Shown piece after piece: positions 3,461-48,001 of a stretch of 64,000 nucleotides of DNA (position 1 is its first letter; each line of letters begins with the position of its first letter). The notes below the pieces were generated by a model. The model had not been told where the DNA came from, did not search any database, and saw only the letters and a list, made by a program, of their open reading frames with translations. Source of the stretch: an uncultured virus (IMG/VR IMGVR_UViG_2061766007_000180) (Duplodnaviria; Heunggongvirae; Uroviricota; Caudoviricetes); IMG/VR virus record IMGVR_UViG_2061766007_000180; one strand, given 5' to 3'. Both the position numbers and the translations under genes were made by a program.

Positions 3461-3772
3461 CAGGTCGAATCAGGGTTCGATACTTGGAATTGGAAAGGGA
3501 AGGAAAGGATCCTGGAGGGGAGATCAAATGGCGGATAAATTCATGGAAGAAGACGAAAAGACAGCTTTGAAACTTCCTCCCCTTCCGGACGGGGTCAATC
3601 CGAAGGATCTCGTTCCGACAAAGACTGTCGGATTGAGGAATCAGTGAGTTATTTCGGTTGGAAAAAGCGGGAGAATAGTCAATAACGCGAATGGATTTTG
3701 GTACAAGACGGAGAATACCGCGAAAAACGTAATAGACATCTATAGAAATCAGACCTCGGATCGAAGTTTTGC

Positions 3773-3801
3773 TTGACACCGGAAGACTTTTCCTGTACAC
3801 T
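3773..3801 (+). promoter_or_regulatory. sigma70-type promoter, leaderless arrangement
   Basis: TTGACA(3773)-17 bp-TACACT(3796), ATG 6 nt downstream at 3808. Confidence 0.75.
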
Positions 3802-3807
3802 AATCCC

Positions 3808-5049
3808 ATGCAAAAGCTCCTGATCCAAGAATTCATCTCCTCCCATTCCGACTGGGAGAGGATCCTTCCGGAAAAGCCCTACTGCCTCAACATCCAGCGG
3901 GACTCCAAGTTCGGAAGGAATCTCGTCCTGTTCAAGTACAACCAGATCGAGTCGGATTTCTCGATTCCCCTAGTCCGGGAGTGCCGGGGGCTGATCCTCG
4001 ACGCGGACACGTTCGAGCCGGTATGTGTTCCGTTCTTCAAGTTTTTTAACTTTTCAGAAAATCTTGCAGACGAGATCGACTGGAAGACAGCGTGGGTGGG
4101 CATGAAAATTGACGGTTCATTGACGAAGGTCGTCCGGCTCGGAAACGACCTCCTCGTCTCCACGAACGGGACGATCGACGCGTACAAGGCTCCTATCCAG
4201 GACCAGATTGGATTCGTCGGAAAGACCTTCGGAGACCTCTTCGAGATGGCCGTCGCGAACGCCAAGGAAAGGTACGACAGGATCTCCCTCGAGAACCACT
4301 ACGCGAGGGAGGATTGGTATCTCGCTCCGATGGACTGGTTCAGGAACCTCCTCCAGGAGGGCTACACCTACATGTTCGAGCTGACCTCCCGGTACAACCA
4401 CATCGTCGTGAAGTTCGGGGATCCGGAGATCCACCTCATCGGGATCAGGGACAACCAGACTTTTCGGGAGATCGAGTTCTTCAACCATCCCCTCTCCCGG
4501 TTCTTCCACACTCCGGAGCTCTTCAGTCTTGGAACCCTGAAGGAGGTGGAGGAGGCCGCGGAGAAGCTCGACGCCAATCACGAGGGATTCGTGGTCTGCG
4601 ACGGGAATTTCCGCCGGGTGAAGGTGAAATCGTCGACGTATGTCGCCATCCACCACCTTCGCGGAGAGGGCGGGGCTCCCTCGTTCGAGCGCGGGATCGA
4701 GATCGTCCGGAAGAACGAGCTCGACGAGGTCCTGACGTACTTCCCCGAGTTCAGGGAGCACCTGGAGAAGATCAGGTCCGACCTTGACACCCTCGTCGAG
4801 AGGCTCGATTCCGGGTGGGATCTTCTCCGGAAAAACCTTTCCGGACTTCCCTCCCGGAAGGATCGGGCGCTGTTCATCATGTCGGACGAGTGCTTCGGAA
4901 AGAAGTTCTCCGGAGTCGGGTTCTCCCTCCTGGACGGAAAGGTCTCCTCCGCGAGGGAATGGGTCGAGAAGTGTCCGGCGAAGAATCTCGTGAAATACCT
5001 AGGATACAAGGAAAATAAACATGAAAATCAAGATCTCCAAGAAGAATAA
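3808..5049 (+). CDS. T4 Rnl1-like ATP-dependent RNA ligase
   Basis: ECRGLI, PFFKFFN, motif I KIDGSL, TYMFEL, motif IV EGFVV, motif V RVKVKS. Confidence 0.9.
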   Translation: MQKLLIQEFISSHSDWERILPEKPYCLNIQRDSKFGRNLVLFKYNQIESDFSIPLVRECRGLILDADTFEPVCVPFFKFFNFSENLADEIDWKTAWVGMKIDGSLTKVVRLGNDLLVSTNGTIDAYKAPIQDQIGFVGKTFGDLFEMAVANAKERYDRISLENHYAREDWYLAPMDWFRNLLQEGYTYMFELTSRYNHIVVKFGDPEIHLIGIRDNQTFREIEFFNHPLSRFFHTPELFSLGTLKEVEEAAEKLDANHEGFVVCDGNFRRVKVKSSTYVAIHHLRGEGGAPSFERGIEIVRKNELDEVLTYFPEFREHLEKIRSDLDTLVERLDSGWDLLRKNLSGLPSRKDRALFIMSDECFGKKFSGVGFSLLDGKVSSAREWVEKCPAKNLVKYLGYKENKHENQDLQEE

Positions 5050-35732: not shown

Positions 35733-36170
35733 ATGATGCTTGCGACAATAGCTTTGCTGGGGACTGCTCCGGAGAGACCGTCTCCGTGGGTTCTGGTAAT
35801 CGCGCTCTTGATCGCGTGCGTGGTGGCTTTCGGCCCCTTGGTAGTTTTTTTAAATTTCGGGCAGATTCGTTTCCGGAACCGGAAGGTCATGAAGCTCCTG
35901 AAGAGGTACGCGAAGTGGTGGGGTTGGGTGAAGGCCAGGAAGTATCCGAAATGGATGAACGTCAGCTATTCCTGGAAAGGATATACCGGAAATTCCATAA
36001 TCCTGAAGAGATATTCGAGGATTCTGGGAATAAGGAAATTCGAGGGGGAGACCGTTCTGACCGACAAGACGAGTTACAACGAGGTGGATTATCTGAAACA
36101 CCTGATGGAGGATAATGGAGTGGATTCTCCGGAAGAGTTCGACCTGTGGCTTTCGCAGAGGGGGTTCTGA
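35733..36170 (+). CDS. Membrane-anchored EEL-motif protein
   Basis: N-terminal TM segment; SPEEFDLWLSQRGF; leaderless promoter 35698-35726. Confidence 0.7.
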   Translation: MMLATIALLGTAPERPSPWVLVIALLIACVVAFGPLVVFLNFGQIRFRNRKVMKLLKRYAKWWGWVKARKYPKWMNVSYSWKGYTGNSIILKRYSRILGIRKFEGETVLTDKTSYNEVDYLKHLMEDNGVDSPEEFDLWLSQRGF

Positions 36171-36171
36171 G

Positions 36172-36504
36172 ATGGATGAAGACGAGATGATGGCTGTTCT
36201 TTGGGACTGGGCGCGTTTCAGGGGGGAAGCGAGTCGCGGAAGACTTGGGAGAGTGTGGGATCGGATCGAATTCTATCCGGTCGTCGAGAAATGCGAATCG
36301 GGATTGTTTCTCGGACAGATGCTGTGTAAATGGTGGACAAGGTCCGGAGATCCAAAGAGCGTCCTCGGGGAAGACATGCCTCCGAAGAAGTTCGACACCC
36401 GGAAGGAGGCCGTCGAATATGTCCTCGGAATGACTCTGGAAGAGGCCATTCTCGAGATGGAGGCCATCGGATTCCGAAGAGAGGCGAGGGAGAAAGAGGC
36501 ATGA
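36172..36504 (+). CDS. EEL-motif protein
   Basis: TLEEAILEMEAIGF. Confidence 0.65.
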   Translation: MDEDEMMAVLWDWARFRGEASRGRLGRVWDRIEFYPVVEKCESGLFLGQMLCKWWTRSGDPKSVLGEDMPPKKFDTRKEAVEYVLGMTLEEAILEMEAIGFRREAREKEA

Positions 36505-36824
36505 CCGACGACAAGATCGAGGATCTTCTCCGGAGATACCTTTCCTGGAGGACGGCGGTCACGGAGCGGAAGTTTCCCGATTTCGGGATCAAGTACATCC
36601 TCCATCTGGAAAAGATTCCGTTCCGCGACGAGAATATGGGGCTGTCGTCGTGGTCCTGGGCGGGAAATGTCCTGATTTCATACCCGGACGGGGAGTGTAT
36701 CCCGGTGTTCGGGGAGATGAAGTTCCGGAGGAGGATCGACGCGGTCAGACATCTCCTGGAAAGTTTTTCCGGAGGAAAATCTCCGGAAGAGATCGTCCTG
36801 GAAATGGAGGCTGCAGGTGCGTAG
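36501..36824 (+). CDS. EEL-motif protein
   Basis: SPEEIVLEMEAAGA. Confidence 0.65.
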   Translation: MTDDKIEDLLRRYLSWRTAVTERKFPDFGIKYILHLEKIPFRDENMGLSSWSWAGNVLISYPDGECIPVFGEMKFRRRIDAVRHLLESFSGGKSPEEIVLEMEAAGA

Positions 36825-37134
36825 GAAACGCAAGGGAAAGTGGGAAAGGCTCCTCGAGAGATATGTCCGGTTCATGGAGTTCCGGCATGGGATGAAGCTC
36901 GAATTCCTGGTCTATCGGACGAAGATCGAAAGATGGGGACTGAGATGGAACAGGAGCGGATTCCGCTACGATGCATACGTCAGGATCTCCGGAGCGATAA
37001 CGATACCTCCGTACATCGCGAGCTGCAGCGGAAGCAGAAGGTCCGACGCGATCAGGGGTCTTCTCCTGTGGCTGGCCGGAAAAGAGAAGACATACGAGGA
37101 GATCGAGATGGAGCTGGAAAGCGGAGGATTCTGA
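36817..37134 (+). CDS. EEL-motif protein
   Basis: TYEEIEMELESGGF. Confidence 0.65.
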   Translation: MRRKRKGKWERLLERYVRFMEFRHGMKLEFLVYRTKIERWGLRWNRSGFRYDAYVRISGAITIPPYIASCSGSRRSDAIRGLLLWLAGKEKTYEEIEMELESGGF

Positions 37135-37135
37135 G

Positions 37136-37480
37136 ATGTCGGACGAGAAGGACTGGGAGGAGATGTGCCGGAGGCTCGTCAGGTGGGACGAAAACCGTCT
37201 GAGGTCGGAGGGGAACAACGCCGAGGATCTTATCCTGGAGATGAGGATACGGGAGAACGGCTCCTGGGGACGGTGGACGACAGTGGAAATCGTTTCCGGA
37301 AACAAGGTCCTTCATTTCTATTCCGGTGAGGAGAAGAAGCGGGCCCTTCTCAGGATGGTCTGGTCGTATGCGTTCCAATACAAGTTCCTGGACCTGGACA
37401 TGTGGAGCTATCCGGAAGATCTGGAAAAACCGGGAACATACGAGGAGCTCGACCTTCGGCTTTCGTCCTACGGATTCTGA
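37136..37480 (+). CDS. EEL-motif protein, paralogue of 34922-35269
   Basis: TYEELDLRLSSYGF. Confidence 0.7.
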   Translation: MSDEKDWEEMCRRLVRWDENRLRSEGNNAEDLILEMRIRENGSWGRWTTVEIVSGNKVLHFYSGEEKKRALLRMVWSYAFQYKFLDLDMWSYPEDLEKPGTYEELDLRLSSYGF

Positions 37481-37619
37481 AAAATTCAGGCCCACCGGTT
37501 GGCATTTTCCGCCGGTTAAAATCCAAAGACAAAAAAAATCAGGCCCGGGAGAGATCCCGGGCCCAACCGTTCCGAAGGACAACATAACCAAAAACTTCCG
37601 GAACGAAAATTCCTGGCCC

Positions 37620-38048
37620 TCAGGTTCCGGCAGGCCCTTCCGGATCCTTCTCTTCCGGACAATTCTCTTCCGGAAAGATGATCGGGTTCCTGGTCCTGAG
37701 GAGATATTCCTTCATGGAATCCATCGCTCCGACGAGGGCGATCAGGTCCTCGGCCTTGGTTTCCGTGGTCAGGTACCTGGAAAGCTGCCGGTAGAACTCC
37801 CAGAGAAGCGACTGGAGATTCCCGTCGTAGGTGGCGGCGACCAGGTTGAGCTTCTGCAGGAAGGATCCGGCCTCCACCTGGTCCGCTTCCGGAAGATCCG
37901 GGTAGGCGGTCGTGTCTCTCGGAGGGATGTTGAGCGCGGAGATTATCTCCTCGTCGCTCATCCGGGAGGGATTTTCCGGGTTTGCGAATCCGGAGAGGTC
38001 GCTTCCGATCCTCCGGGAGAACTTGTCTTGGGTTTGGGTTTCTTGCAT
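37620..38048 (-). CDS. Hypothetical protein
   Basis: 142-aa ORF in operon, hairpin plus A-run downstream at 37531-37564. Confidence 0.65.
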   Translation of the reverse strand: MQETQTQDKFSRRIGSDLSGFANPENPSRMSDEEIISALNIPPRDTTAYPDLPEADQVEAGSFLQKLNLVAATYDGNLQSLLWEFYRQLSRYLTTETKAEDLIALVGAMDSMKEYLLRTRNPIIFPEENCPEEKDPEGPAGT

Positions 38049-38049
38049 G

Positions 38050-38349
38050 TCAGCCGTTTTCCTTGCTTTCGGGAATGTCTTCCGGGACGCCGGTTTCCTC
38101 CTGGCCCCCCTCCTGCCGTTCGGGATTTTCTTCCGGTTTTCCGGTCAGGAGATCCTCGATCAGGTTTTCCAGCCAGATCACCCGCTTGAACCGGTAGATC
38201 GATTCCAGCTTGTAGAACCCTGCGATGAGGGCCCAGATGGCCCCCGAAAAGTTGCATTCGACGACAAATAAGATGGAGACTGTTGTGGCCAGGGCGACAA
38301 GGACCCAGTCGCAGATGTTGATTGCCTTGGTAATCGTTTCGGTCTTCAT
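38050..38349 (-). CDS. Two-TM membrane protein
   Basis: Two hydrophobic helices, GAGGA RBS. Confidence 0.65.
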   Translation of the reverse strand: MKTETITKAINICDWVLVALATTVSILFVVECNFSGAIWALIAGFYKLESIYRFKRVIWLENLIEDLLTGKPEENPERQEGGQEETGVPEDIPESKENG

Positions 38350-38358
38350 TGCTTTTCC

Positions 38359-38703
38359 TCAATATTGTACGGGGTTTCCCGGATCCGAGACTTCGGTCTT
38401 TCCGGAAAGGAGCTGTTCCAGGATCTCGGCGTACCTTCCCTTTCCGGAAAGATCCGCTCCGGAAAGAAGCTTCCGGAACCTTTCCACCGCCTCTTCCCTC
38501 GGAAGGACGAGCTTTCCCCGGCCGTTCCGGGAGATCTTCACGAAATCGGTCTTCCGGAAGAATTCGGCGGAAAGGACCTCCTTGAGTCCCTTCGTGGTGG
38601 CCTGGAAGTTGAAGAGGAGGTTGTGCGGATACTTGGTCTGCTGCTCGACCCTGGTCCGGAACGTCTTTCCGGAAATGTCCTTCCACGTTATCTGGGCGGT
38701 CAT
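38359..38703 (-). CDS. Hypothetical protein
   Basis: AAAGGA RBS, 114 aa. Confidence 0.65.
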   Translation of the reverse strand: MTAQITWKDISGKTFRTRVEQQTKYPHNLLFNFQATTKGLKEVLSAEFFRKTDFVKISRNGRGKLVLPREEAVERFRKLLSGADLSGKGRYAEILEQLLSGKTEVSDPGNPVQY

Positions 38704-38719
38704 GTCAGATCCTTTCTTT

Positions 38720-39175
38720 TCAGGAAAGCCTCTCCGCGGCTTCCTTCCCCATCTTCTCGGCGTCGAAACGGTACTCCAGGCCGAATTCCTCGATCTGATC
38801 CGGAGTCCACGCTCTCTTCATGTCCCGATCGTAGCAGTTTCCGTCTTCCGGAAGATACGCGTGGACAAGGTCGTCCTCCCCGAGATACAGGAAGAAGGCG
38901 ACCGGAAGCTCCCAGTCTCCTCCTGCGGCGGAGTGGAATACCGGGATCTGCGTTCCCGGAAGAAGATGGAATCCGGCTGGGCCGCCGTAACCCGGCATGT
39001 CGAACGGATCGTTTCCCGGAAAAAGGAAGTTTTCCGTGTCGAAGTCGATCTCGGAAAGGTCGTCCGTTATCTGCCGCGGAATCTCGGAGCTCTCTCCGTC
39101 CGGAGAGAAGCTTTTCGAAATGGCTTCCTGGAGCCGGTCGGAACCGACGTCTTTCTTTGCCTTGACTATGCTCAT
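38720..39175 (-). CDS. Conserved phage hypothetical protein
   Basis: AGGDWE.PV.F..Y....AY.P..GN pattern; AAAGGA RBS. Confidence 0.7.
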   Translation of the reverse strand: MSIVKAKKDVGSDRLQEAISKSFSPDGESSEIPRQITDDLSEIDFDTENFLFPGNDPFDMPGYGGPAGFHLLPGTQIPVFHSAAGGDWELPVAFFLYLGEDDLVHAYLPEDGNCYDRDMKRAWTPDQIEEFGLEYRFDAEKMGKEAAERLS

Positions 39176-39197
39176 CTGGTGTTTTCCTTTGTAGAGA

Positions 39198-39272
39198 TGG
39201 TCACTCCGGTCGGACTCGAACCGACATGGGAGGGATTAGAAATCCCTTGCAAATCCTTTTTGCGACGGAGTG
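39198..39272 (-). tRNA. tRNA-Arg(TCT)
   Basis: CACTCCG/CGGAGTG-A-CCA; AGGGA-TTTCTAA-TCCCT; GTCGG-TTCGAGT-CCGAC. Confidence 0.9.
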
Positions 39273-39362
39273 GTGTCTTTCCCGATCTTGGGTGTGTTCA
39301 TGTCAAGAAGTATACAGGATCTTCCCGCGAATGTCAAGCGAAAACGGGCGGTCTGGATCAGA

Positions 39363-39692
39363 TGGTGGAGAAGACGGGAGTCGAACCCGTTTCCGGAACG
39401 GTCCTTCGGAACGCTTTCTACGACAGTTTCCTACGGAAGTTTAACCTCTCACCCCAATAGGAATCGGATGACAGGCGAGAATCCTCGTTTGAGATCCTTC
39501 GGGCGAGGAGACGAGACCCTCGGAAATGCCAGATAAAGAGTGCCCTACTCGGACCTTATCTGGCGTGTGGTTCTTTCGGGTGGCTCATGCGGCCATTCTG
39601 TAGCTGTTGCCAGTTACTGTTCTTGAACTTACGGCTTCCGCCGTGTCGCTGCGCTCGTGGGACTTGGTTCCGTCGAATGCCGGAACTTCCCC
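39363..39692 (-). ncRNA. ssrA: tmRNA, predicted tag (A)GNSYRMAA
   Basis: GGGGAAG...ATTCGACG 5' end; GGTTCGACTCCCGTCTTCTCCACCA 3' end; G3:U70; TAACT-GGC resume; tag ORF 39611-39585. Confidence 0.92.
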
Positions 39693-39705
39693 TCAAAATC
39701 ATTGG

Positions 39706-40686
39706 TTATTGATGATCAAACCACCATAAAAATTGTTTGATCTTAAACTTCATCCTTTTCTTTCCAACATTATTGTTTATGTTGTTCCAGGCAATTCTAT
39801 AAATGATATATCCATTTTCACGGAGTATTCTATCACGTTTTCTGTCATTTTGTATCCTGTCTGAATATGTATGTTGTTTTCCGTCAATTTCAAGATTTAT
39901 AAGTTTTCCATTCTTTTTTATCAAGAAATCTAAGAAATACCCAAATACTGGAGTCTCACGATTGAATGAAATTCCATTATTATCTAGAACCCTAGTCCAA
40001 AATTTCTCTGGATATGATGTAATATTACGAGATATCCAGCCTTTGTGAGTTCCAGTTAGAACTCTTTGTTGTTGGGCATCTCTCAATCGTTGGCGTGTTT
40101 TTTCTGAAATAATACGTTTCCCAGATTTTGTGTATAACTGATAATGATGTTTGTTTAGTCTGTCACAACATTCGTAACAGTATGCTTTGTTTAGTGTTTT
40201 AATCCAGATTGTTTTTCCACAAGAGGAACATTTAGACATATATGGACGAGGTGATGTTTTTTGTTTGCTGTTTTTTCTGTCTTTTCTAGAATATCCCCAT
40301 TTTTTCAAATAGCATTTGTCACAAAGGGTTTTGTGGGTTGAACATCCAACGTGTATAAATTCTTTTCCACATTCTGGGCAAATGTGCTTTCTGGGTTTTG
40401 ATGTGGATAATGACGTTTTTATTTTTGATTCTTTTGTGCGAATATGTGAATTTGCATGTTCTCGACAACAGAATTGTGGTATTCTATAGTTCATTTTAAA
40501 GTGGCGGATTTTTAGCCTCTTTATAAATTTCTTTCCACATTTCTTACAAATTATTGTAAAATTTTCATATGCTTCATCTGGATCTTTTTTTAAAAATTTT
40601 TTTCTGTGTTCTGGTATATGTTCTTCTGAACATCTCTCGTTTTCTTCTGAATTGGGGAGTTTTAATGAAACGTCTTCATCTATCAT
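39706..40686 (-). CDS. Zn-finger / DUF559 (Vsr-like) homing endonuclease
   Basis: Several CxxC; SYPEK; YFLDF...LEIDGKQH...DRKRD..L...GY...RI.W; very AT-rich. Confidence 0.85.
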   Translation of the reverse strand: MIDEDVSLKLPNSEENERCSEEHIPEHRKKFLKKDPDEAYENFTIICKKCGKKFIKRLKIRHFKMNYRIPQFCCREHANSHIRTKESKIKTSLSTSKPRKHICPECGKEFIHVGCSTHKTLCDKCYLKKWGYSRKDRKNSKQKTSPRPYMSKCSSCGKTIWIKTLNKAYCYECCDRLNKHHYQLYTKSGKRIISEKTRQRLRDAQQQRVLTGTHKGWISRNITSYPEKFWTRVLDNNGISFNRETPVFGYFLDFLIKKNGKLINLEIDGKQHTYSDRIQNDRKRDRILRENGYIIYRIAWNNINNNVGKKRMKFKIKQFLWWFDHQ

Positions 40687-40808
40687 GGTTTTACCTTTAG
40701 TTTTATGTCGTTGTTCCACCAACGACATTTATACTTACAGTATTGTAAGAAAATCTGCTTCCATTCTTATGTTGGGTGGAACCATGATAGAATGGAAGCA
40801 GGGAAAAA

Positions 40809-40880
40809 TCGGGGAACCCGGAAGTCGCACCGGGGCCTTCTCGTCCCAAGCGAGGCGTGCTGCTCTTATACCATTCCCCG
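40809..40880 (-). tRNA. tRNA-Pro(TGG), CCA not encoded
   Basis: CGGGGAA/TTCCCCG-A; loop CTTGGGA; T-loop TGCGACT. Confidence 0.85.
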
Positions 40881-40902
40881 TAATCGTATCGAATTTTTCA
40901 AA

Positions 40903-41037
40903 GGTTGCGCCGGTCCGGATTTCCGGAGACAGAGCTGGCCAGATTGCATCTCCCCGGCATCTTTCCGGAAAGGACGGTTCCGGATGCGCTTTCCGGAAAG
41001 GTCTTCCTCGGAACGTTCTGGTTTGAACTACGGCAAA
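40903..41037 (-). ncRNA. tRNA-derived RNA with expanded arms
   Basis: GCCG-TA-GTTC-AAACCA-GAAC D-arm start; ends TCCGG-AAAT-CCGGA-CCGGCGCAACC. Confidence 0.4.
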
Positions 41038-41113
41038 TGGCGACCCGGCCAGAACTCGAATCTGGAAATAATCCTTAGGGGGGATTCGTGATATCCGATT
41101 TCACCACAGGGTC
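41038..41113 (-). tRNA. tRNA-Arg(CCT), C33
   Basis: GACCCTG/CCGGGTC-G-CCA; AATCC-CCCCTAA-GGATT. Confidence 0.85.
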
Positions 41114-41181
41114 TTTCGAAAGGGTGACATGTGGCAAGTTTACGGAAAGTTGCCGGATGTCGTGTTTTGAGACCGGAAGAT

Positions 41182-41264
41182 TTGCAAGGGATAGATTCGA
41201 ACTATCGAAGCCCGAAGGCAACGGGTTTACAGCCCGTCCTCGTTGACCACTTGAGTACCTTGCA
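41182..41264 (-). tRNA. tRNA-Tyr(GTA)
   Basis: TGCAAGG/CCTTGCA-A; ACGGG-CTGTAAA-CCCGT; long variable arm. Confidence 0.9.
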
Positions 41265-41273
41265 TTGAAAAAG

Positions 41274-41399
41274 GAAGGCGAGACGTAACATAGGCGCTCT
41301 AAGTGCTGAGCTACGGACCCGGAAATGGCGGGTCCGGCAGGAATTCCACCTGCGACCTCCTCCTTAACAAGGGATTAAGAGGAACGTCTTTGTGCCTTC
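41274..41399 (-). ncRNA. Circularly permuted tRNA-Asn(GTT)-like gene
   Basis: 3' half (41372-41326, ends CGGACCC-G-CCA) precedes 5' half (41320-41292, GGGTCCG...); complementary leader and trailer. Confidence 0.65.
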
Positions 41400-41403
41400 G
41401 AAA

Positions 41404-41541
41404 TGGAGCAAGATGCCGAACTCGCATCGGCGTAAACTACCTTTGGTCGTGGAACTTGGATTTGAACCAGGATTTCCTCGTGGTGTTCTACTTGAACTAT
41501 TCCACGGGAAGGGTAGCGCATGACTTCTCTGCCAACCTTGC
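41404..41541 (-). tRNA. tRNA-Gly(TCC) interrupted at 36/37 by a tRNA-like insert
   Basis: GCAAGGT/ATCTTGC-T-CCA; CTACC-CTTCC|insert|AA-GGTAG. Confidence 0.85.
41444..41506 (-). ncRNA. 63-nt tRNA-like element lacking a normal anticodon arm, nested in tRNA-Gly
   Basis: CGTGGAA/TTCCACG-A-CCA; GTTC/GAAC D stem; stub CC-ACGA-GG; TTCAAAT T-loop. Confidence 0.85.
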
Positions 41542-41650
41542 GTTTTGAAACCGTTGAACTATCGGCCCGTTGAAAAAGCAGATGCCGCAACCGGATTTCG
41601 CCAACAACGGCATCGGATTCTCTGCCTACAACATGGTAGGAGAGACTAAA

Positions 41651-41673
41651 TGGTACCTAGACTGGGACTTGAA
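41651..41673 (-). tRNA. 3' fragment of the split tRNA-Lys(TTT)
   Basis: TTCAAGT-CCCAG-TCTAGGT-A-CCA pairs (6/7) with ACCTTGA at 43284-43278. Confidence 0.7.
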
Positions 41674-43169
41674 TGTACTCATGAACATAAACTCCGTAAA
41701 GAAGTTTCGGAAATGCCAACGTTGGACTTTCTGTTCCTGAGCTGAAACCACCTCTCGTCTCCTCGAAGTGGAACCCTGTACATCATTCCAGAGTTTTTGA
41801 AGAAGGAATGCATCTCCTTCCAGGATCCGAAGCTCTCTTCCGTCCCAAATTCTTCCAACGACTTGGAGACGGCCTCGGCGAACCTCGGCATCCTGGGGAA
41901 TACGACGTTCCCCAAGCTTGAAATATTCCTGTCTACAAACTGCCTTCTGAACTCGTACCCCCTGCGGCCGATCTCGATCGACGCGTTGACCATGTCGGGA
42001 GCCCCGTGCCTCCTGAAGAGGATGTTTCCCACGAACGACGAGTAGGCCGCCGCGATCTCCTGAAAGTGGATTCCGGCTATCACACATCTTTTTCTCAGAT
42101 TGTCGACGAGCTTCTTCCTGAGCCACCTGTTGTTCCGGATCTTGTTCTGGTATTTCCCAAGCCCGGAATTCCCCGACCTCATGTCGAGGCTTTCCGCGGC
42201 GAAGGTCTCACACTGGAAGTACCTGGCCTTGTCGACGAGGTTTTTCGCGACCTCGAACGTCTCATGCCGCAACTTGTCGGCGGCGTATTTCCTTTTCTTG
42301 TCGGACGACGGGATCCCAAGCCTCCTCAAGGCCCATTCCCGGTCGTTCAGGTTCTTGAACGAATATACGCCGCTCTTCACGATCCGGTAGTCGTTCTCAT
42401 CCTTCCAGTCGACGACCGACCACCCAACGTAGTTCGGGTTCATGTCTATCGCCATGACCCGACTCTTGATCTGCTCGGTTCGGCGGACGCCGAACACGTC
42501 CTTCTCGTCGAATGTGATGTAGAGATGGTCCAACCCGAGCCTGAATGTCACCGGAGCCCGTTTTCCGACCTGGATCTCATGGAGTTTCTTCAGGATCTTC
42601 CTGATGTTCTTCCGGTTTCCGTATTCGAGCTTTAGGTCGAACCTGACGTCCCTGGAGGGCTGGAACAGGATATTGTCAAGGTCCTTCTGGATCCGGAAGT
42701 TCCTGTTTCCGTGATGTTCCCGGTCTCCGATGCAGTAGAACGGACTCAACCTCGCAAGCCTGAATTCCTCTCTCGTGATCCTCTTCCTGCATCTGGAAAC
42801 GAAGTTCTTCTTCCCTCCGAAGACGACCTTGTCGTTTAATGTGATGAGCTGAGTTGCTTCCTTGAACGCACAATGGAGAGTCCATTTCGAGATCATATGA
42901 AGGTTTTGAAGTTCTTCTGCCAGTTTCGTGGTTTCCTTCTCTCCAAGACCTTCCTTGACCCGATTGTAGACAAAATGCAGACAGTTGGAATATTGGCGAA
43001 GATGGGAAACCACGATTTCCTTCTCTTCGTCTGTCTCAACTGAATATCTGAGTTTTATCGTTTGCATTAGTCTTGTTGTTATTTACTACGGAAAGGTTCT
43101 GGAACTTTAATTGATTGTGTAATATTGTACACAATTTATGATTTTTAAGGTACTTTATTATTTTAAAAC
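41674..43169 (-). mobile_element. TnpB-only element inserted in tRNA-Lys
   Basis: Bounded by the two parts of tRNA-Lys; no transposase; AT-rich left end. Confidence 0.7.
41679..43067 (-). CDS. tnpB: TnpB-family RNA-guided endonuclease (no Zn-finger)
   Basis: RuvC-I AIDMNP, RuvC-II AAESL, AYSSFVGN, RuvC-III PDMVNASIEI. Confidence 0.85.
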   Translation of the reverse strand: MQTIKLRYSVETDEEKEIVVSHLRQYSNCLHFVYNRVKEGLGEKETTKLAEELQNLHMISKWTLHCAFKEATQLITLNDKVVFGGKKNFVSRCRKRITREEFRLARLSPFYCIGDREHHGNRNFRIQKDLDNILFQPSRDVRFDLKLEYGNRKNIRKILKKLHEIQVGKRAPVTFRLGLDHLYITFDEKDVFGVRRTEQIKSRVMAIDMNPNYVGWSVVDWKDENDYRIVKSGVYSFKNLNDREWALRRLGIPSSDKKRKYAADKLRHETFEVAKNLVDKARYFQCETFAAESLDMRSGNSGLGKYQNKIRNNRWLRKKLVDNLRKRCVIAGIHFQEIAAAYSSFVGNILFRRHGAPDMVNASIEIGRRGYEFRRQFVDRNISSLGNVVFPRMPRFAEAVSKSLEEFGTEESFGSWKEMHSFFKNSGMMYRVPLRGDERWFQLRNRKSNVGISETSLRSLCS

Positions 43170-43284
43170 AACCCACAGATTATGGACGTCACTGGGTGAA
43201 TTGCACACCCGCCTCCATTACTGGTGTTCTCTTTAGAAACTAAGTGACGAAAGTCTGTTGCTCTGCCAATTGAGCTATCAAGGT
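43170..43284 (-). tRNA. 5' part of tRNA-Lys(TTT), interrupted at 35/36 by a tRNA-like insert and then by the TnpB element
   Basis: ACCTTGA-TA-GCTC...GAGC-A-ACAGA-CTTT|insert|TAA-TCTGT-GGGTT. Confidence 0.8.
43183..43249 (-). ncRNA. 67-nt tRNA-like element with GNRA-capped stub instead of an anticodon arm, nested in tRNA-Lys
   Basis: CGTCACT/AGTGACG-T-CCA; CCA-GTAA-TGG stub; GGGTG-TGCAATT-CACCC. Confidence 0.85.
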
Positions 43285-43293
43285 GTTGAAGGG

Positions 43294-43464
43294 CTCGTGT
43301 GGGAAGACTCGAACTTCCAAACCTTTCGGCGGCAGATTATGGAGGAATGAAATGGATTCGAACCATTACCCCATGCCGAGGACCTAGTTAACCTCCAGAC
43401 AATGTATGCAACCTCTACACCATCATTCCACAGTCTGCTGCGGCTACCATTTCGCCACACACGA
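43294..43464 (-). tRNA. tRNA-Asn(GTT), long variable arm, interrupted at 35/36 by a tRNA-like insert
   Basis: TCGTGTG/CACACGA-G; GCAGA-CTGT|insert|TAA-TCTGC; GGAAG-TTCGAGT-CTTCC. Confidence 0.85.
43340..43429 (-). ncRNA. 90-nt tRNA-like element with elongated aberrant anticodon arm, nested in tRNA-Asn
   Basis: GGAATGA/TCATTCC-T-CCA; AATGG-TTCGAAT-CCATT. Confidence 0.85.
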
Positions 43465-43587
43465 TCAAAGCGCGAGGGTTTTTCTGGGGAGCCGTAACCT
43501 GAAACGGTCCTTGAGGCGAATTGCCCCCTGCCGGACTGAACGCCGCATGCTGCGCAATCCCAACCCACAAAGCAGTTCAAGAAGAAA

Positions 43588-43739
43588 TGGAGCGAGGGTC
43601 CCGATTCGGATTTCGTACGCTAGCATCCTACTTTCCGCGTCCTATGACAGGCCGGGCACGTGTTTTGGTCCCGAATCCGCCTCCGGCTCGACTAACCCGG
43701 CTCGCAACGGACTGGCTGTCCGTACGTCCGGCCCCTCGC
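43588..43739 (-). ncRNA. 152-nt RNA closed by a tRNA-like acceptor stem with U-CCA
   Basis: GCGAGGG/CCCTCGC-T-CCA; internal GATTCGG/CCGAATC; no T arm. Confidence 0.55.
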
Positions 43740-43764
43740 AATGACACACCGGAGTTGAGAAAAA

Positions 43765-43923
43765 GGAGCGGATCCGCCGACTGGAACCCCTTTCGAGGCC
43801 CCGAAGAGCTTTCTCCGGATGTTGGGTATTCCATTTTCCGGGAAGAGTCTTCTTCCTCGGAGTTTCTTTCGGGTGTCCCTATATCGGTGGAACACATCAG
43901 GTTTGACTCCCTGTCGGATCTGC
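43765..43923 (-). ncRNA. Structured ncRNA of unknown class (weakly 6S-like)
   Basis: GCAGATCCG/CGGATCCGC terminal stem; CCTGATGTGTTC motif. Confidence 0.4.
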
Positions 43924-43934
43924 TGAGATGAAAC

Positions 43935-44009
43935 TGGAGCTGGGTGGGAATTCCGAGATCCCATCGTCTTTCTTACAAGGAAAGTGCCTATCCGTTCGGC
44001 CAACCCAGC
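43935..44009 (-). tRNA. tRNA-Thr(TGT), aberrant T-loop
   Basis: GCTGGGT/ACCCAGC-T-CCA; CTTTC-CTTGTAA-GAAAG. Confidence 0.85.
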
Positions 44010-44013
44010 AAAA

Positions 44014-44088
44014 TGGTTCCGACGGAGGGTATCGATCCCACCTGACCCGTCTTAAAAGGACGGTACCTATCCTCTCGGTCACGTCGGA
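44014..44088 (-). tRNA. tRNA-Lys(TTT), uninterrupted
   Basis: TCCGACG/CGTCGGA-A-CCA; CCGTC-CTTTTAA-GACGG. Confidence 0.88.
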
Positions 44089-44094
44089 TCAAAT

Positions 44095-44169
44095 CGTTCC
44101 TGGAGGGACTTGAACCCCCAAAATCCTCCGTGAAAGGGAGGTGGCTATAACCAGTTTGCCTACAGGAAC
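44095..44169 (-). tRNA. tRNA-Glu(TTC), CCA not encoded
   Basis: GTTCCTG/CAGGAAC-G; CCTCC-CTTTCAC-GGAGG. Confidence 0.9.
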
Positions 44170-44341
44170 AAAGACGTTTCGGAACGCACCGGCCCGTACA
44201 CTAAACGGCGTCACGCGTCGGATCCCTCGGCTATGTTAGGCTCTTGAACGGCACGTCTGCTTCCGGAAATCGACCGTCGTCGGAACCGGAAATCGCCGAA
44301 CACCTCAAGCGGATCCGCTCTTCTGTTAGTATTCCATGAAA

Positions 44342-44417
44342 TGGTAGCGGGAGTAGGGCTCGAACCTACGACCTCCGGGGTATGAACCCGACAAGCTGCC
44401 AACTGCTCCATCCCGCT
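44342..44417 (-). tRNA. Initiator-type tRNA-Met(CAT)
   Basis: AGCGGGA/TCCCGCT-A-CCA; TGGAGCAG D arm; three G-C pairs closing loop TTCATAC. Confidence 0.9.
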
Positions 44418-44424
44418 GAAATCG

Positions 44425-44964
44425 TCATTGGTAATTCGGATCCGCCTGTATCACCCCAAACCGGTGGAAGTATTCCAACGGTCTCATTTTTCTGACTTTG
44501 GTCTCTCCCTTGCGCGGCACGTAGAATCCCCACTTGTGCCGCGGCCGTCCTTCAAGAAGAAGAGTCCACGCTCCGAATTCCGAGATGTTCAGAAAATGTC
44601 TTTGCTCGGCCTTTGAGAACCATATCGACCGTCCCAGGTTCCATGATGGCTTGTGCGTTTCCGAACCAAACAGGCCAATGACCTCGCAGAACCTCTTGTT
44701 GTTCCCAGACGGCGGCAGCTCCGGATCCAGAGGCACCGTGTTCCAGTACCGGCCCCAGATCACCACGCTTATGAAATTCGCAGCATGGTCGTGGAAATAC
44801 CTTCTGTCGTCCGATCTCAGCCAATGGTGGAGTCGTATTGTGAATCCGAATATCACCAATGTCCATCTGACGAGGTATGGATTTCTCGGATCCCCCAGTT
44901 TCTCCGCCCATCTCACCTGAAACAACTTTCCGAACGGTCTAGTGTCCGACGAACCTGTTGACAT
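44425..44964 (-). CDS. Conserved phage protein, cupin-like
   Basis: PYLVRW...IRLHH.LRSD...HDH...F.S; WGF; AAAGGAG RBS. Confidence 0.75.
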   Translation of the reverse strand: MSTGSSDTRPFGKLFQVRWAEKLGDPRNPYLVRWTLVIFGFTIRLHHWLRSDDRRYFHDHAANFISVVIWGRYWNTVPLDPELPPSGNNKRFCEVIGLFGSETHKPSWNLGRSIWFSKAEQRHFLNISEFGAWTLLLEGRPRHKWGFYVPRKGETKVRKMRPLEYFHRFGVIQADPNYQ

Positions 44965-44989
44965 GACAGTCTCCTTTGTGGTTGTTAAA

Positions 44990-45167
44990 TGGTCAGGTTG
45001 GTTGGATTCGAACCTCAAGGGATCCGATCAACGATCCCCTGGAGCCAGCGTGGGGGTTTCCACATCTTAAAGCTCTCACCATCCTCTCCGCGTAAACTCG
45101 CGTTCGTTATCCATGGATTCGAACATTTGAGCATTGGAGCGTGCTTCCCTATTACACCATCAACCCG
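44990..45167 (-). ncRNA. tRNA-like RNA with about 100-nt insertion in place of the anticodon arm
   Basis: CGGGTTG/CAACCTG-A-CCA; TGGTGTAATAGGGAAGCAC D arm; GGTTCGAATCC T arm. Confidence 0.6.
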
Positions 45168-45181
45168 TTGGATTTAAAGTT

Positions 45182-45254
45182 TGGACACGTGCGGATTCGA
45201 ACCGCGAACTTCTCGGTGCAAACGAGATGTGATACCAGATTTCACCACCGGCCC
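45182..45254 (-). tRNA. tRNA-Ala(TGC), acceptor mismatches
   Basis: TCTCG-TTTGCAC-CGAGA; G3:U70; GCGG-TTCGAAT-CCGC. Confidence 0.75.
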
Positions 45255-45650
45255 TTGAAATCACAGGCCGTCTCCGCTCAGGCGAGGGGTAGAGACTTGG
45301 GAGACGGCCGGTGGGGCTTTCGCCCCGATCTATTCGTAAATGAATAGGAACCCCATGTGCCATGCTTAAATCGAGAAGTCTCCGGAGCCGCTTTTCCGCC
45401 TGCCAAAGAAAGGAGTAAACAAAACAGGCCGTTCCACCTGGGGAGAGGTCCACCTCCCGGACGGAGACAAGGCGGAGGATAGGGGGAGAAAGGAAAGAAA
45501 ACCCCAGGCCCTCCGCACATCGTGACACCCGAAAAAGATAGGCCCGCCAAACAGGCCCTTCCACTTTTCGGGTCCGCGCTCGGCCAAACACCTGTTTAAG
45601 GTCGCCGAGCCGACCTCCGGAGAATTCCACTCCGGAAAATTCAAACCGCC

Positions 45651-45665
45651 CAGTTTTCAAAGATC
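45651..45665 (-). promoter_or_regulatory. rrn-type boxA antitermination signal
   Basis: GATCTTTGAAAACTG about 20 nt downstream of the -10 box. Confidence 0.65.
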
Positions 45666-45686
45666 TTGTTTCCTGCCAACGCCTAT

Positions 45687-45715
45687 AGTGTACAACTTTC
45701 ACCGTCGGCAGTCAA
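45687..45715 (-). promoter_or_regulatory. sigma70-type promoter of the RNA operon
   Basis: TTGACT-17 bp-TACACT. Confidence 0.75.
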
Positions 45716-45733
45716 GCAAAAAGCGCAACTTAT

Positions 45734-46231
45734 TTACACCGGACCATCTCCGGAAATTCCAGGCCCGGAAATTCCTGGCCCTCTCGCCTTTCCGGGAATC
45801 TTCGCCACGACCCACTTTCCGGGATTTGCCCTCATGTGCCCGAGCCCTACCGGAAAAGGTCTCTTCCGGTCCCTCTCCTCCCGGAGGAAGTTTCTCGGAT
45901 CCTGCCTGTTCCGGAGCTTCCTCTCGAGCCATCTCTCCGCATCCAGGTTCGTCCAGGCCCTCGTGGAATAGAACACCGAAAGGTCGTACGGGATTCCGAA
46001 GTTCCTGAGGACAAATTTCTCGGCAGGCTCCCTTTCCGGCAGGCCCTTCAGGAACCTCCTCCACCCGGTCTCGGTGTCGAACCTTCCCGCACAGAGGAGA
46101 AAGCTCCTGGCCCTGTCCTCCGGATCGCTCCTCCGGAGATACATCAGAAGGTACCATCCTTCCCGGGATCCGATCGAGGCTGTCCTTATGAGCTCGGCGT
46201 CTCCGGGAAGGCGGTTCCCGGAAATCGTCAC
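45734..46231 (-). CDS. Hypothetical protein
   Basis: GTG start inferred from coupling to upstream stop. Confidence 0.5.
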   Translation of the reverse strand: MTISGNRLPGDAELIRTASIGSREGWYLLMYLRRSDPEDRARSFLLCAGRFDTETGWRRFLKGLPEREPAEKFVLRNFGIPYDLSVFYSTRAWTNLDAERWLERKLRNRQDPRNFLREERDRKRPFPVGLGHMRANPGKWVVAKIPGKARGPGISGPGISGDGPV

Positions 46232-46881
46232 CGGGAACCCTTCCTTCCGGACCGGGCTTTCCGGACCGGCTTGCCGTCGGATATCTTCCTGGTGTCGGCT
46301 CCGGCCTTCTCCTTCGCCTTCTTCTGGGCGGCCTTCTCGGCGGCGCGCTTTCTCGTGGCGGGAGTCTGGTCGTACGCCCTTTCGATGATGCGCTTCAGCT
46401 CCATCATGTATCCGGCGGAGCTGTAGTTTCCGCGGTCGTCCGGAGTTCCGTAGAGACGCTTCACGATCGCGAACGCGAGACCTGCCTCCTTCGAGAACGT
46501 GTCGTCCTTCGAGGCCCTCACCATGGAGGTCGTCCCGTCCTCGAACCACACCTTCGTGACCGGCTCGTTGAAGACCACGCGGCTGATCTTCGGAAATGCG
46601 GTCCTGGTTTCGACCGTGTAGGTGGAGCCGTCCGGACTTGCGGGAAGGTCCCCGAAGGGCTCCTCCATGTCGACGTCATCCCCAGGATCGTCCTCCCTGA
46701 TCTCCTCCGCGGAATCGTAGAGCTCGCGGATCCTGTCGCGGAGCTTCCGGACGGCATCGCCCTCGTGCAGGTTCTGGCGGACGGTGCGTGTCCCGAGCCG
46801 TTCGGTCGCTTCCGGAAAATGCTCTCCGAAGAGCATAATGTCAAACAGGGGGGCAAACGGGTTCTGTATGGTGTTGTACAT
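46228..46881 (-). CDS. Conserved phage hypothetical protein
   Basis: RVVFNEPVTKVWFEDGT...D.FSKEAGLAFAI pattern. Confidence 0.75.
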   Translation of the reverse strand: MYNTIQNPFAPLFDIMLFGEHFPEATERLGTRTVRQNLHEGDAVRKLRDRIRELYDSAEEIREDDPGDDVDMEEPFGDLPASPDGSTYTVETRTAFPKISRVVFNEPVTKVWFEDGTTSMVRASKDDTFSKEAGLAFAIVKRLYGTPDDRGNYSSAGYMMELKRIIERAYDQTPATRKRAAEKAAQKKAKEKAGADTRKISDGKPVRKARSGRKGSR

Positions 46882-46914
46882 TTCTTTTCTTCCTTCTGGA
46901 ATATTGTACGGTTC

Positions 46915-47115
46915 TCAGTCGTCATCGTCGTCGAAGATGTCGCCGTCGCCGTCATCCTCTTCCTCGTCATCGTCGTACTCGTTGATCTTCTTGTCGATCC
47001 CGAGGGTGTCCGCGATGTCCTGCAGCGCGTCGTACGGATCGTCGAAGTCCTTGTCGAACTGGTCGATGATCCGCTTGATGTCCTCGAGGGGAGTGTCTTC
47101 TGGCTTTGCCTTCAT
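46915..47115 (-). CDS. Small acidic protein
   Basis: Own promoter and AAGGA RBS. Confidence 0.65.
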   Translation of the reverse strand: MKAKPEDTPLEDIKRIIDQFDKDFDDPYDALQDIADTLGIDKKINEYDDDEEEDDGDGDIFDDDDD

Positions 47116-47182
47116 TTGGTTTTCCTTGTTGATTGATGGTGTGCAGTCTATCAGGAATTTCCGGTTCCGTCAACCGGAGATG

Positions 47183-47527
47183 TCATGTGTTCTTCAGGTC
47201 GAAGATGGTGTCCCCGAGGGCGTTGAGCGCACGGTTCTGATCGGGGGTGTATCCGAAGTCTCCGGCCGAGAACACGAAGTCGCAGGCTCCGCAGAGCATC
47301 GCGAGCTTGAGGTCGGAGATAACGGGATCGTATTGGGCCTTGATGCGTTCTATGGCGAGGAAGTGGGCGATCGGAACCTTCTTCTCCATGACCTTTCCGG
47401 CAAGGTCCTCTCCGTCGTCGAACGCGTTCTTGACATTCCCGAGGGCATCCACGATCCTGGCCTTGAGCATCGGATCGATCGCCATTGTCGTCTTCCTGTA
47501 TTTCTCTATGAATTGTCTTTCCTTCAT
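47183..47527 (-). CDS. Hypothetical protein
   Basis: Own promoter and RBS. Confidence 0.7.
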   Translation of the reverse strand: MKERQFIEKYRKTTMAIDPMLKARIVDALGNVKNAFDDGEDLAGKVMEKKVPIAHFLAIERIKAQYDPVISDLKLAMLCGACDFVFSAGDFGYTPDQNRALNALGDTIFDLKNT

Positions 47528-47605
47528 TTGGTTTCCTTGTTGTTTGATGGTCGGTAGTGTATCAGAAATCCTTGGTCCCGTCAACCGAAAATCCTTGGCC
47601 CTCCG

Positions 47606-47797
47606 TCAGGCCTTCTCGTAGTGCGTCGACCTTATCGTCGTCCACTTCATCCGGGCGAACCGTTCCTCGGAATCGTTTCGGGAGATGTCGAGGATAAAGC
47701 TCTCGACTTCCTTCTTCGTCCTGAACGACCCCACGTAGTTTCCCTTCGAGTAGAGATCGTACATGGGAACGCCTCTCATGATCCTGCTGGGTTTCAT
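47606..47797 (-). CDS. Hypothetical protein
   Basis: 63-aa ORF. Confidence 0.5.
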   Translation of the reverse strand: MKPSRIMRGVPMYDLYSKGNYVGSFRTKKEVESFILDISRNDSEERFARMKWTTIRSTHYEKA

Positions 47798-48001
47798 GAT
47801 GAGAGTGTACGGAAAATTCCTGGCCCCCGGTCACTTTCCGGAAGAATTTTCCAGAAGCCTCTCCATCGCCTCGGTCTCCCGGAGGATCTCTTCCCGGAAC
47901 TCTTCCTCGAGACCTTCGCTCGATCTCACGTCCGAGGAGATTCTCCGGAGCGAGTTGAGGAGGCAGACAAGGTCGCCGGGTTGCATCGGGAGACCTCCAT
48001 T

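Follow-up and report, generated by a model that had tools for sequence, protein, structure and literature searches.

Positions 43294 to 43464 of a 64,000-nt stretch of DNA from an uncultured virus of the Caudoviricetes (IMG/VR record IMGVR_UViG_2061766007_000180), which we call the window, hold on the minus strand a tRNA gene whose anticodon loop is interrupted by a second, tRNA-shaped sequence of 90 nt. The whole is one gene for a class-II-shaped tRNA with the anticodon GUU, broken between U35 and U36. We use the word nest for such an arrangement of an outer tRNA gene and a tRNA-shaped insert; two further nests, in a tRNA-Lys and a tRNA-Gly gene, stand close by. Our preferred reading, to which we assign a probability of roughly 40%, is that the insert is an intron whose tRNA ends act as splice signals: RNase P and an endonuclease that respects CCA would release it, and a ligase of the Rnl1 type would seal the exons.

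The outer gene encodes a class-II-shaped tRNA with an Asn anticodon, interrupted within that anticodon

The 5' exon supplies a 7-nt acceptor strand, a 3-bp D stem with a 10-nt loop, the stem strand GCAGA and the nucleotides C32, U33, G34 and U35. The 3' exon opens with U36, A37 and A38, followed by the stem strand TCTGC and a 13-nt variable arm with a GAAA loop; its second half consists of a T arm with a TTCGAGT loop, the acceptor strand and G73, and CCA is not encoded. When the two exons are joined by coordinates with a script, ARAGORN calls an 81-nt tRNA-Asn(gtt) in which every stem is paired. The anticodon loop that remains has 7 nt, CUGUUAA, with U33 and a purine at position 37, and the insert-free gene has the 7-bp acceptor stem, the 5-bp anticodon stem and the TTCRA-type T loop of a canonical cloverleaf. 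In the DNA, the gene is not contiguous, the 90-nt insert lying between positions 35 and 36. An earlier note on this DNA had described a long-variable-arm tRNA whose anticodon GTT is split after GT, and both the sequence and the ARAGORN result on the joined exons agree with it. The boundary is ambiguous, since ARAGORN in intron mode shifts the junction by one base and calls His(gtg) i(37,90). The anticodon is divided after GU only if the insert's own tRNA ends set the cuts.

The identity elements of tRNA-Asn are the anticodon GUU and the discriminator G73, and its variable loop is normally short. Here GUU and G73 are both present, yet the variable arm has 13 nt and the D stem 3 bp, and in its body the outer tRNA is similar to the tRNA-Tyr of the phage itself, which is of class II. 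Two related phage contigs contain uninterrupted tRNAs that combine a long variable arm with GTT and G73 (L036, 2299..2386, 88 nt; L041, 1303..1392, 90 nt), indicating that the combination of a class-II body with an Asn anticodon is a feature of the lineage and a working kind of tRNA in this phage group.

The insert has the shape of a tRNA but is unlikely to decode

The insert starts with GGAATGA and ends with TCATTCC-T-CCA, giving a perfect 7-bp acceptor stem and a T73-CCA end; it has a 4-bp D stem and a canonical T arm (AATGG/TTCGAAT/CCATT). Its central part departs from this pattern. Taken alone, the insert (43340..43429) is called tRNA-Ser(gga) by ARAGORN, with an anticodon stem of 3 out of 5 pairs (2 Watson-Crick and 1 G-U) and a variable-arm helix that does not form in the Ser model. 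Infernal scores the insert at 39.4 bits against the Rfam tRNA model, whose gathering score is 29, but only with the anticodon arm skipped, as 27 nt occupy the 11 model positions of that arm. The minimum free energy (MFE) fold shows in its place a long irregular hairpin with a 10-nt loop and the helices GAGG/CCUC and GUC/GGC, and the insert does not form the 5-bp stem and 7-nt loop of a decoding tRNA.

The weak stem in the ARAGORN model, the skipped arm and the long hairpin in the MFE fold together argue that the insert is tRNA-shaped but unlikely to decode. This is what the earlier note had proposed from the canonical T arm and the over-long, irregular central arm, and the MFE fold and Infernal bear it out. 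Were the insert instead an ordinary decoding tRNA-Ser(GGA), its flanks would be leftover or chance sequence. The ARAGORN call and an Rfam score above the gathering threshold are what such a tRNA would give, but we consider this reading very improbable: two Watson-Crick pairs and one G-U pair out of five in the anticodon stem, the missing variable-arm helix, the dependence of the Infernal score on skipping the arm and the alternative hairpin all contradict it. Moreover, the flanks form a complete tRNA, against none of 278 shuffled controls.

Three nests follow one rule for the ends of the insert

We scanned for a signature made up of an insert with a 7/7 acceptor stem followed by N and CCA, a flanking 5-bp stem and a remaining loop of 7 nt. 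Within the tRNA cluster and on the tRNA strand, the signature matches the three nests, Asn, Lys and Gly, the last two lying within 2 kb of the first (Table 1). The window and 41 related loci, described below, hold 27 matches altogether, and only those of Asn and Gly give an ARAGORN tRNA across the junction; the 278 control matches came from 60 shuffled windows, and an ARAGORN tRNA resulted from none.

Table 1. Positions of the nests and of further features in the window and, where a contig is named, in related contigs
Feature	Position	Strand	Details	Basis
5' exon, outer tRNA-Asn(GUU)	43464..43430	minus	35 nt	sequence; ARAGORN on joined exons
Asn insert, tRNA-shaped	43429..43340	minus	90 nt	ARAGORN; Rfam tRNA; MFE fold
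3' exon, outer tRNA-Asn(GUU)	43339..43294	minus	46 nt	sequence; ARAGORN on joined exons
5' exon, outer tRNA-Lys(UUU)	43284..43250	minus	ends C32 U33 U34 U35	signature scan; ARAGORN
Lys insert	43249..43183	minus	67 nt; ends T73-CCA	Rfam tRNA, 30.7 bits with local skip
Start of 3' exon, outer tRNA-Lys	43182..43168, approximate	minus	U36 A37 A38 and stem strand, then broken	ARAGORN analysis
AT-rich element of ~1.5 kb in T arm of Lys outer gene	43167..41674, approximate	minus	holds 462-aa open reading frame, 41679..43067	
Candidate remainder of Lys outer gene	41673..41651	minus	T loop to A73, CCA	
5' exon, outer tRNA-Gly(UCC)	41541..41507	minus	ends C32 U33 U34 C35 C36	signature scan; ARAGORN
Gly insert	41506..41444	minus	63 nt; ends A73-CCA	Rfam tRNA, 39.8 bits with local skip
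3' exon, outer tRNA-Gly(UCC)	41443..41404	minus	A37 A38 onward; CCA encoded	ARAGORN
Transfer-messenger RNA (tmRNA)	39692..39363	minus	tag peptide GNSYRMAA (ARAGORN)	Rfam, 64.2 bits
RNA ligase, T4 Rnl1 (gp63) family, candidate sealing enzyme	3769..5049	plus		Pfam; phrog; structure match
Interrupted Lys(UUU), Thr(UGU) and Pro-like tRNAs of relatives	L013 3449..3566; L025 6532..6648; L031 5354..5468; L026 1288..1408; L027 5154..5274; also L017, L043			

Joining the Gly exons yields a 75-nt tRNA-Gly(tcc) by ARAGORN with all stems paired. The Lys outer gene, assessed by ARAGORN after removal of both its insert and the ~1.5-kb element, is decayed: the element breaks the T arm, the T stem cannot be restored and the acceptor stem has a T.T mismatch. 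An intact tRNA-Lys(UUU) gene is found at 44014..44088, ~730 nt upstream of the Lys nest.

With a hyphen marking the place of the insert, the loops read CUGU-UAA in Asn, CUUU-UAA in Lys and CUUCC-AA in Gly. Removing exactly the sequence from +1 to CCA leaves a 7-nt loop with U33 and A37 in all three nests. In each of them the insert ends coincide with +1 and CCA with zero leftover bases, and hairpin or palindromic flanks are not present. The three inserts all keep the acceptor stem, D arm, T arm, N73 and CCA, and none has a usable anticodon arm. Where that arm belongs, the Lys and Gly inserts have a 2-3-bp stem with a tetraloop (CCA-GUAA-UGG and CC-ACGA-GG, respectively). No insert carries a complete tRNA of the outer gene's identity, the nominal anticodon of the Asn insert being GGA.

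The earlier note had also held that the inserts obey the same boundary rule and are independent or long diverged. The rule stands as far as the ends and the remaining 7-nt loop are concerned (3 of 3 nests), and fails for the position in the loop, which is between 35 and 36 in Asn and Lys and between 36 and 37 in Gly. Alignment of the three inserts showed no relationship of the Asn insert to those of Lys and Gly, from which the note had said its sequence differs, whereas the Lys and Gly inserts are identical in 36 of 71 aligned columns and have a D-arm motif in common. These two are therefore related to each other, and not all three inserts are independent. None has a second copy within the window; this, and the degree of identity between the Lys and Gly inserts, suggests that the inserts are old.

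A route by which the exons could be rejoined

Since the insert ends are mature tRNA ends in all three nests, cutting by the enzymes that process tRNA ends is the simplest explanation; the acceptor stem and T arm, together with N73 and CCA, which every insert keeps, are the part used by RNase P and RNase Z. In the route that we propose, the minus-strand tRNA cluster would be transcribed as a long precursor. RNase P would cut at +1 of the insert, leaving a 3'-OH on the 5' exon, and a 3' endonuclease that respects the encoded CCA would cut directly after the CCA of the insert, leaving a 5'-phosphate on the 3' exon. The latter cut might be made by RNase E, or by an RNase Z resembling the Thermotoga or methanomicrobial enzymes. 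The exons would remain annealed as a nicked cloverleaf until the phage ligase of the T4 Rnl1 family closes the anticodon loop; the product would be a tRNA of 81 nt reading AAY. The chemistry of the ends would suit such a ligation: RNase P leaves a 3'-OH upstream of its cut, RNase Z and RNase E leave a 5'-phosphate downstream, and an ATP-dependent ligase joins such ends without healing. The exon halves are predicted to cofold into a cloverleaf with a gain over the monomers of -11.8 kcal/mol for Asn and -8.8 kcal/mol for Gly. The insert itself would probably be a tolerated selfish element or a processing cassette.

Activities of this kind have been described. The RNase Z of T. maritima cleaves after an encoded CCA (PMC3161902). 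In two methanomicrobial RNase Zs the cut falls immediately 3' of an encoded CCA; these enzymes require a substrate with a matured 5' end and tolerate the loss of the D, T or anticodon arm (PMC7479834). In E. coli, proline tRNAs acquire their mature CCA ends through a single endonucleolytic step by RNase E (PMC5291269), and T4 Rnl1 rejoins tRNA halves that were broken in the anticodon loop (PMC3400036).

The candidate sealing enzyme encoded in the window matches Pfam PF09511 (E 3.2e-14, 53.8 bits against a cut-off of 28.3) and phrog_562 (E 2.3e-46). It also matches the structure of T4 Rnl1 (2c5u, E 1.2e-16), its residues K-I-D-G-S being aligned on K-E-D-G-S of the T4 enzyme, and we take the K of this K-x-D-G-S motif to be the catalytic lysine. 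Among the 50 window proteins scanned, none was a Pnkp.

The state of the outer genes agrees with this route. For the outer genes of Asn and Gly the window contains no intact paralogue, yet their stems are flawless, and the Lys outer gene, which has one, is decayed. Given that the inserts appear to be old, the intact stems of Asn and Gly and the decay of the paralogue-backed Lys gene alone tilt the balance toward functional outer genes, an argument drawn from three cases in 64 kb of genome.

The nests in other metagenomes, and the readings weighed

We compared the window with contigs of at least 85% likeness in four runs of other studies (X5, X7, X8 and X11). The runs holding all sampled words of the stretch were only bovine gut metagenomes. 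Record 20 of X8 covers 43258..43458 with 7 differences in 201 nt and no gap, and has the Gly nest (41399..41541) with 2 differences. The Asn nest is covered in part by records 14 and 15 of X7 and by record 4 of X11; the latter also covers the Gly nest, which is kept in X8 and X11 with 2-4 differences. Contigs from the runs of other studies span the Asn nest and so rule out an artefact of assembly. None of the 15 joints listed (16 in all, in the four runs) removes the insert alone. Together the results show that the Asn nest is real, occurs in three other studies and is gained or lost as a whole gene.

The ~1.5-kb element is less constant. X11 record 4 has 143 letters against 41551..43257 of the window, so that the element is absent there, and in X8 it is replaced by other sequence. 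Loose ends at 43257 in X5 and X7, from which no clean tRNA could be parsed, may come from other organisms.

The same comparison bears on a rival explanation, by which a selfish or accidental insert inactivated the outer tRNA and the halves are degraded and never rejoined. A tRNA-like DNA element, or a retro-copied mature tRNA-like RNA, would have landed in the anticodon loop; RNase P and 3' enzymes would cut the transcript and set the insert free as a small RNA. If the element descends from a mature RNA, its exact +1 and CCA ends call for no splicing, and the surroundings look like a hotspot of mobile and broken DNA, with the AT-rich 1.5-kb element, an AT-rich DUF559 endonuclease gene and orphan tRNA fragments. 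The Lys nest has decayed, and whole nests are missing from X5 and hence dispensable. However, both non-redundant outer genes, Asn and Gly, have every stem paired in spite of inserts that look old (single-copy in the window, with the related pair at 36 of 71 identical columns). An insert-free outer gene is absent among the 15 joints listed in the four runs, and the Asn nest is kept without insertions or deletions in three other studies. We regard a dead gene as the main rival, only somewhat less probable than splicing.

Several observations weigh against splicing. Concerning the ligase, its score of 62.7 bits does not reach the NCBIfam equivalog cut-off of 242, and its gene lies 38 kb from the nests, to which it is linked by inference only. 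Rnl1 ligases are common in large phages, and the known natural site of T4 Rnl1 is 5' of position 34, not between 35 and 36 or between 36 and 37. A canonical RNase Z cut, made before the CCA, would leave a 10-nt loop. As to the locus, one of the three nests (Lys) is clearly broken, and the cluster is pieced together from fragments of tRNA, an IS-like element and a gene for an endonuclease, which makes insertion at the level of DNA plausible. Record 8 of X5 skips 43283-43461, the whole Asn nest, together with 41673-43258 and 41410-41646, the latter containing the Gly nest, indicating that both nests are dispensable. The Asn nest differs from X8 by 3.5%, near the value of the flank (30 differences and 5 gaps in 917 nt), so that no extra constraint is visible. 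The runs listed for the stretch include none recorded as RNA. Database scans add to this: a CCA-bounded nest that yields a tRNA was found in 0 of the 41 related loci, the junction patterns, exact or degenerate, had no match in IMG/VR, and the protein route through the GTDB genomes gave 34 candidate stretches, none of them a relative, and no nest of this type.

Two other searches were made. A DNA-pattern scan of the GTDB genomes gave one match, in a metagenome-assembled genome of Gimesia, which we discarded as a chance match, no tRNA being found at its 6-kb locus. A blastn search of GenBank phages with 7.3 kb returned generic tRNA-Met matches only.

On this evidence we consider the splicing mechanism plausible, but unproven. 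The wider conclusion, that these nests represent a third, undescribed way of tRNA splicing in which a tRNA-shaped intron is handled by universal end-processing enzymes and a phage ligase of the Rnl1 type, is put forward as tentative.

Related phages carry other interrupted and tRNA-like RNAs

An open reading frame (ORF) of 197 aa in the cluster belongs to phrog_4786, annotated 'cysteine dioxygenase', and its relatives (46-66% identity) led to the 41 related loci, 2 in IMG/VR and 39 in metagenomes. These include contigs of 160-320 kb, and tRNA genes are present in nearly all loci. The earlier note had made the keeping of the flanks as exons in relatives a point on which its claim could fall. 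The outcome is divided: uninterrupted tRNAs of the GTT/G73 type do exist in L036 and L041, and a close uninterrupted orthologue was seen in none of 43 loci. For the outer genes of both Asn and Gly, the 41 loci around the ORF likewise gave no such orthologue.

Many relatives possess tRNAs of ~115-123 nt with an insert of 42-51 nt in the 5' strand of the anticodon stem, at about the boundary between positions 29 and 30 (Table 1). Exon borders are conserved, the inserts form a hairpin with compensatory changes and contain an invariant CAGCA motif, and no Rfam ribozyme match was obtained in them. They may be another undescribed type of tRNA intron. In the stretches covered, which extend up to 7 kb to either side, ARAGORN found no Lys, Thr or Pro tRNAs other than the interrupted copies, which suggests that this phage group can remove intervening sequences. 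Intervening sequences in tRNAs seem to be common in the group.

A different kind of RNA stands in the window at 44990..45166 (minus strand): it is tRNA-like, with acceptor stem, D arm and T arm, but where the anticodon arm would be it has a large central domain. Similar RNAs of ~110-205 nt occur in L013 (3871..4058), L001 (5379..5533), L033 (857..992) and others, directly upstream of the conserved 197-aa ORF in the relatives examined. ARAGORN in intron mode calls them as various intron-bearing tRNAs. Their conservation indicates that non-decoding tRNA-like RNAs are a feature of the phage group.

Such RNAs lend some support to a further alternative, in which the pieces of a nest function without religation: the insert, the halves or both would be the products, and the outer frame would serve as a scaffold for processing or stabilisation. 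Anticodon nucleases typically attack Lys and Asn tRNAs, and unligated pieces might act as decoys for host anticodon nucleases or for defence proteins that bind tRNA, or as regulators. The complete acceptor/T minihelix, the CCA and the D arm of all three inserts would suit such a role, as would the conserved 110-205-nt RNA beside the same ORF in related phages. But taking out the insert yields a perfect tRNA whose loop has the canonical 7 nt, a property that a scaffold does not require, and the three inserts share little sequence, so that a common binding function is not evident. We therefore judge this alternative unlikely.

Gene content and side elements of the cluster

The window encodes a GP88-like protein, homing endonucleases and a protein with a head-tail adaptor match. 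Its tRNA genes and the tmRNA gene are clustered on the minus strand, at ~39200..45260, and tmRNA genes are also found in the tRNA clusters of the relatives L013, L025 and L031. Since the phage carries a tmRNA gene, a bacterial host is indicated.

For the 462-aa ORF in the ~1.5-kb element we obtained a weak match to the N-terminal domain of an IS605-type transposase (TIGR01765, E 2e-4, below the cut-off), no Pfam match even at E 1 and no match in the PDB. With the Pfam and PDB searches empty and TIGR01765 below threshold, we dropped the assignment as TnpB/OrfB; a RuvC-like motif, which we presumed on first impression, is unconfirmed. A second AT-rich ORF, of 340 aa and with a DUF559/REase endonuclease domain, lies between a tRNA-Pro gene and the tmRNA gene (39706..40728, minus strand). 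It looks like a mobile insertion, as joints in X5 and X8 skip or replace the stretch.

Several pieces of tRNA lie in the cluster, all on the minus strand. At 43935..44009, 4 nt after the intact tRNA-Lys gene, a cloverleaf resembling tRNA-Thr(UGU) can be drawn by eye, with an 8-nt T loop and an encoded CCA; neither ARAGORN nor Rfam (E up to 1) calls it. At 41290..41345 a T arm, an acceptor 3' strand and GCCA are followed 5 nt later by a 5' fragment (acceptor strand and D arm), whose acceptor strand is complementary to the orphan 3' piece. Another orphan 5' fragment, at 41542..41570, abuts the 5' end of the Gly nest. These pieces may be a third layer of nesting or debris of recombination. A possible third layer round the Gly nest, combining 41570..41542 with 41403..41326, is tRNA-like only with a bulged acceptor stem, and ARAGORN makes no call there.

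Two more observations concern the window at large. The palindrome TTCCGGAA occurs 72 times in the whole window, compared with 4.6 occurrences expected from shuffles (shuffle maximum 12). A match to the Pistol ribozyme at 45550..45615 was put down to chance, its 26.9 bits (E 0.14) falling short of the gathering score of 34.5.

Significance and comparison with known systems

Rejoining of the exons would make this the first route of protein-dependent tRNA splicing in the bacterial or phage world, one built from enzymes that every cell has and a ligase known so far for repair. The Rnl1 ligases of phages would gain a housekeeping role, in the routine splicing of tRNAs in some large phages. Being phenotypically silent, tRNA-shaped elements could then spread into anticodon loops. 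Such splicing would also offer a concrete route for the origin of tRNA introns and of split tRNAs. Should the outer gene be dead, the nests would still be examples of tRNA-shaped insertions that target anticodon loops, of a kind not described before. The locus also misleads standard annotation: ARAGORN reports a tRNA-Ser(GGA) that probably does not decode and misses the Asn and Gly genes, so that tRNA inventories of large phages, and arguments on codon usage built on them, may be biased.

A full-text search of the literature, with most subscription journals outside its coverage, returned no account of a tRNA gene with a tRNA-shaped insert or intron. Within the reach of that search, the nest structure is new for tRNA genes.

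Group I introns of bacterial and phage tRNA genes are comparable in that they, too, are inserts in an anticodon loop of bacterial type. They differ in size and fold, having ~200 nt or more, in contrast to the 90, 67 and 63 nt of the present inserts, whose candidate fold is a tRNA-like L-shape with no P1-P9 core. A group I intron and small ribozymes were rejected: the Rfam group I model gave no match (E up to 1) in 36000..48000 or 41380..43480, and the insert matched no Rfam intron or ribozyme family.

The protein-spliced introns of Archaea and eukaryotes with their bulge-helix-bulge motif, together with the split tRNA genes of Nanoarchaeum and permuted tRNA genes, resemble the nests in having an insert in the anticodon loop, which in the nests, too, would be removed by proteins and the exons joined by a ligase (PMC3400036). 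Unlike them, the insert here is itself tRNA-shaped with a CCA end, and it lies inside or directly after the anticodon rather than at the canonical site between positions 37 and 38; the tmRNA gene, moreover, points to a bacterial host. The bulge-helix-bulge motif itself, two 3-nt bulges with a 4-bp helix between them, was rejected. For the Asn precursor, the one nest that was folded, the MFE structure places both junctions in an unbroken helix of 6 bp, free of bulges; inspection by eye indicated that the sequences around the Lys and Gly junctions cannot pair in the required way.

The use of a tRNA shape as a signal for processing is well known. The tRNA punctuation of mitochondria, the mascRNA at the 3' end of MALAT1 and the t-elements of plant mitochondria all recruit RNase P and RNase Z. 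As proposed for the nests, a non-decoding tRNA shape fixes the exact cuts in the flanks. The difference is that the flanks in those systems are not rejoined, whereas the tRNA halves here would need ligation.

A parallel for that last step is the repair of PrrC-cut tRNA-Lys by Pnkp and Rnl1 in T4, which features a ligase of the same family, a break in the anticodon loop and halves that stay annealed (PMC3400036). In T4 a host nuclease inflicts the break, whereas here it would be written into the gene by the insert, and the 3'-OH and 5'-phosphate ends to be expected need no healing by Pnkp. The site differs as well: T4 tRNA is broken 5' of position 34, and the junctions of the nests lie between 35 and 36 or between 36 and 37.

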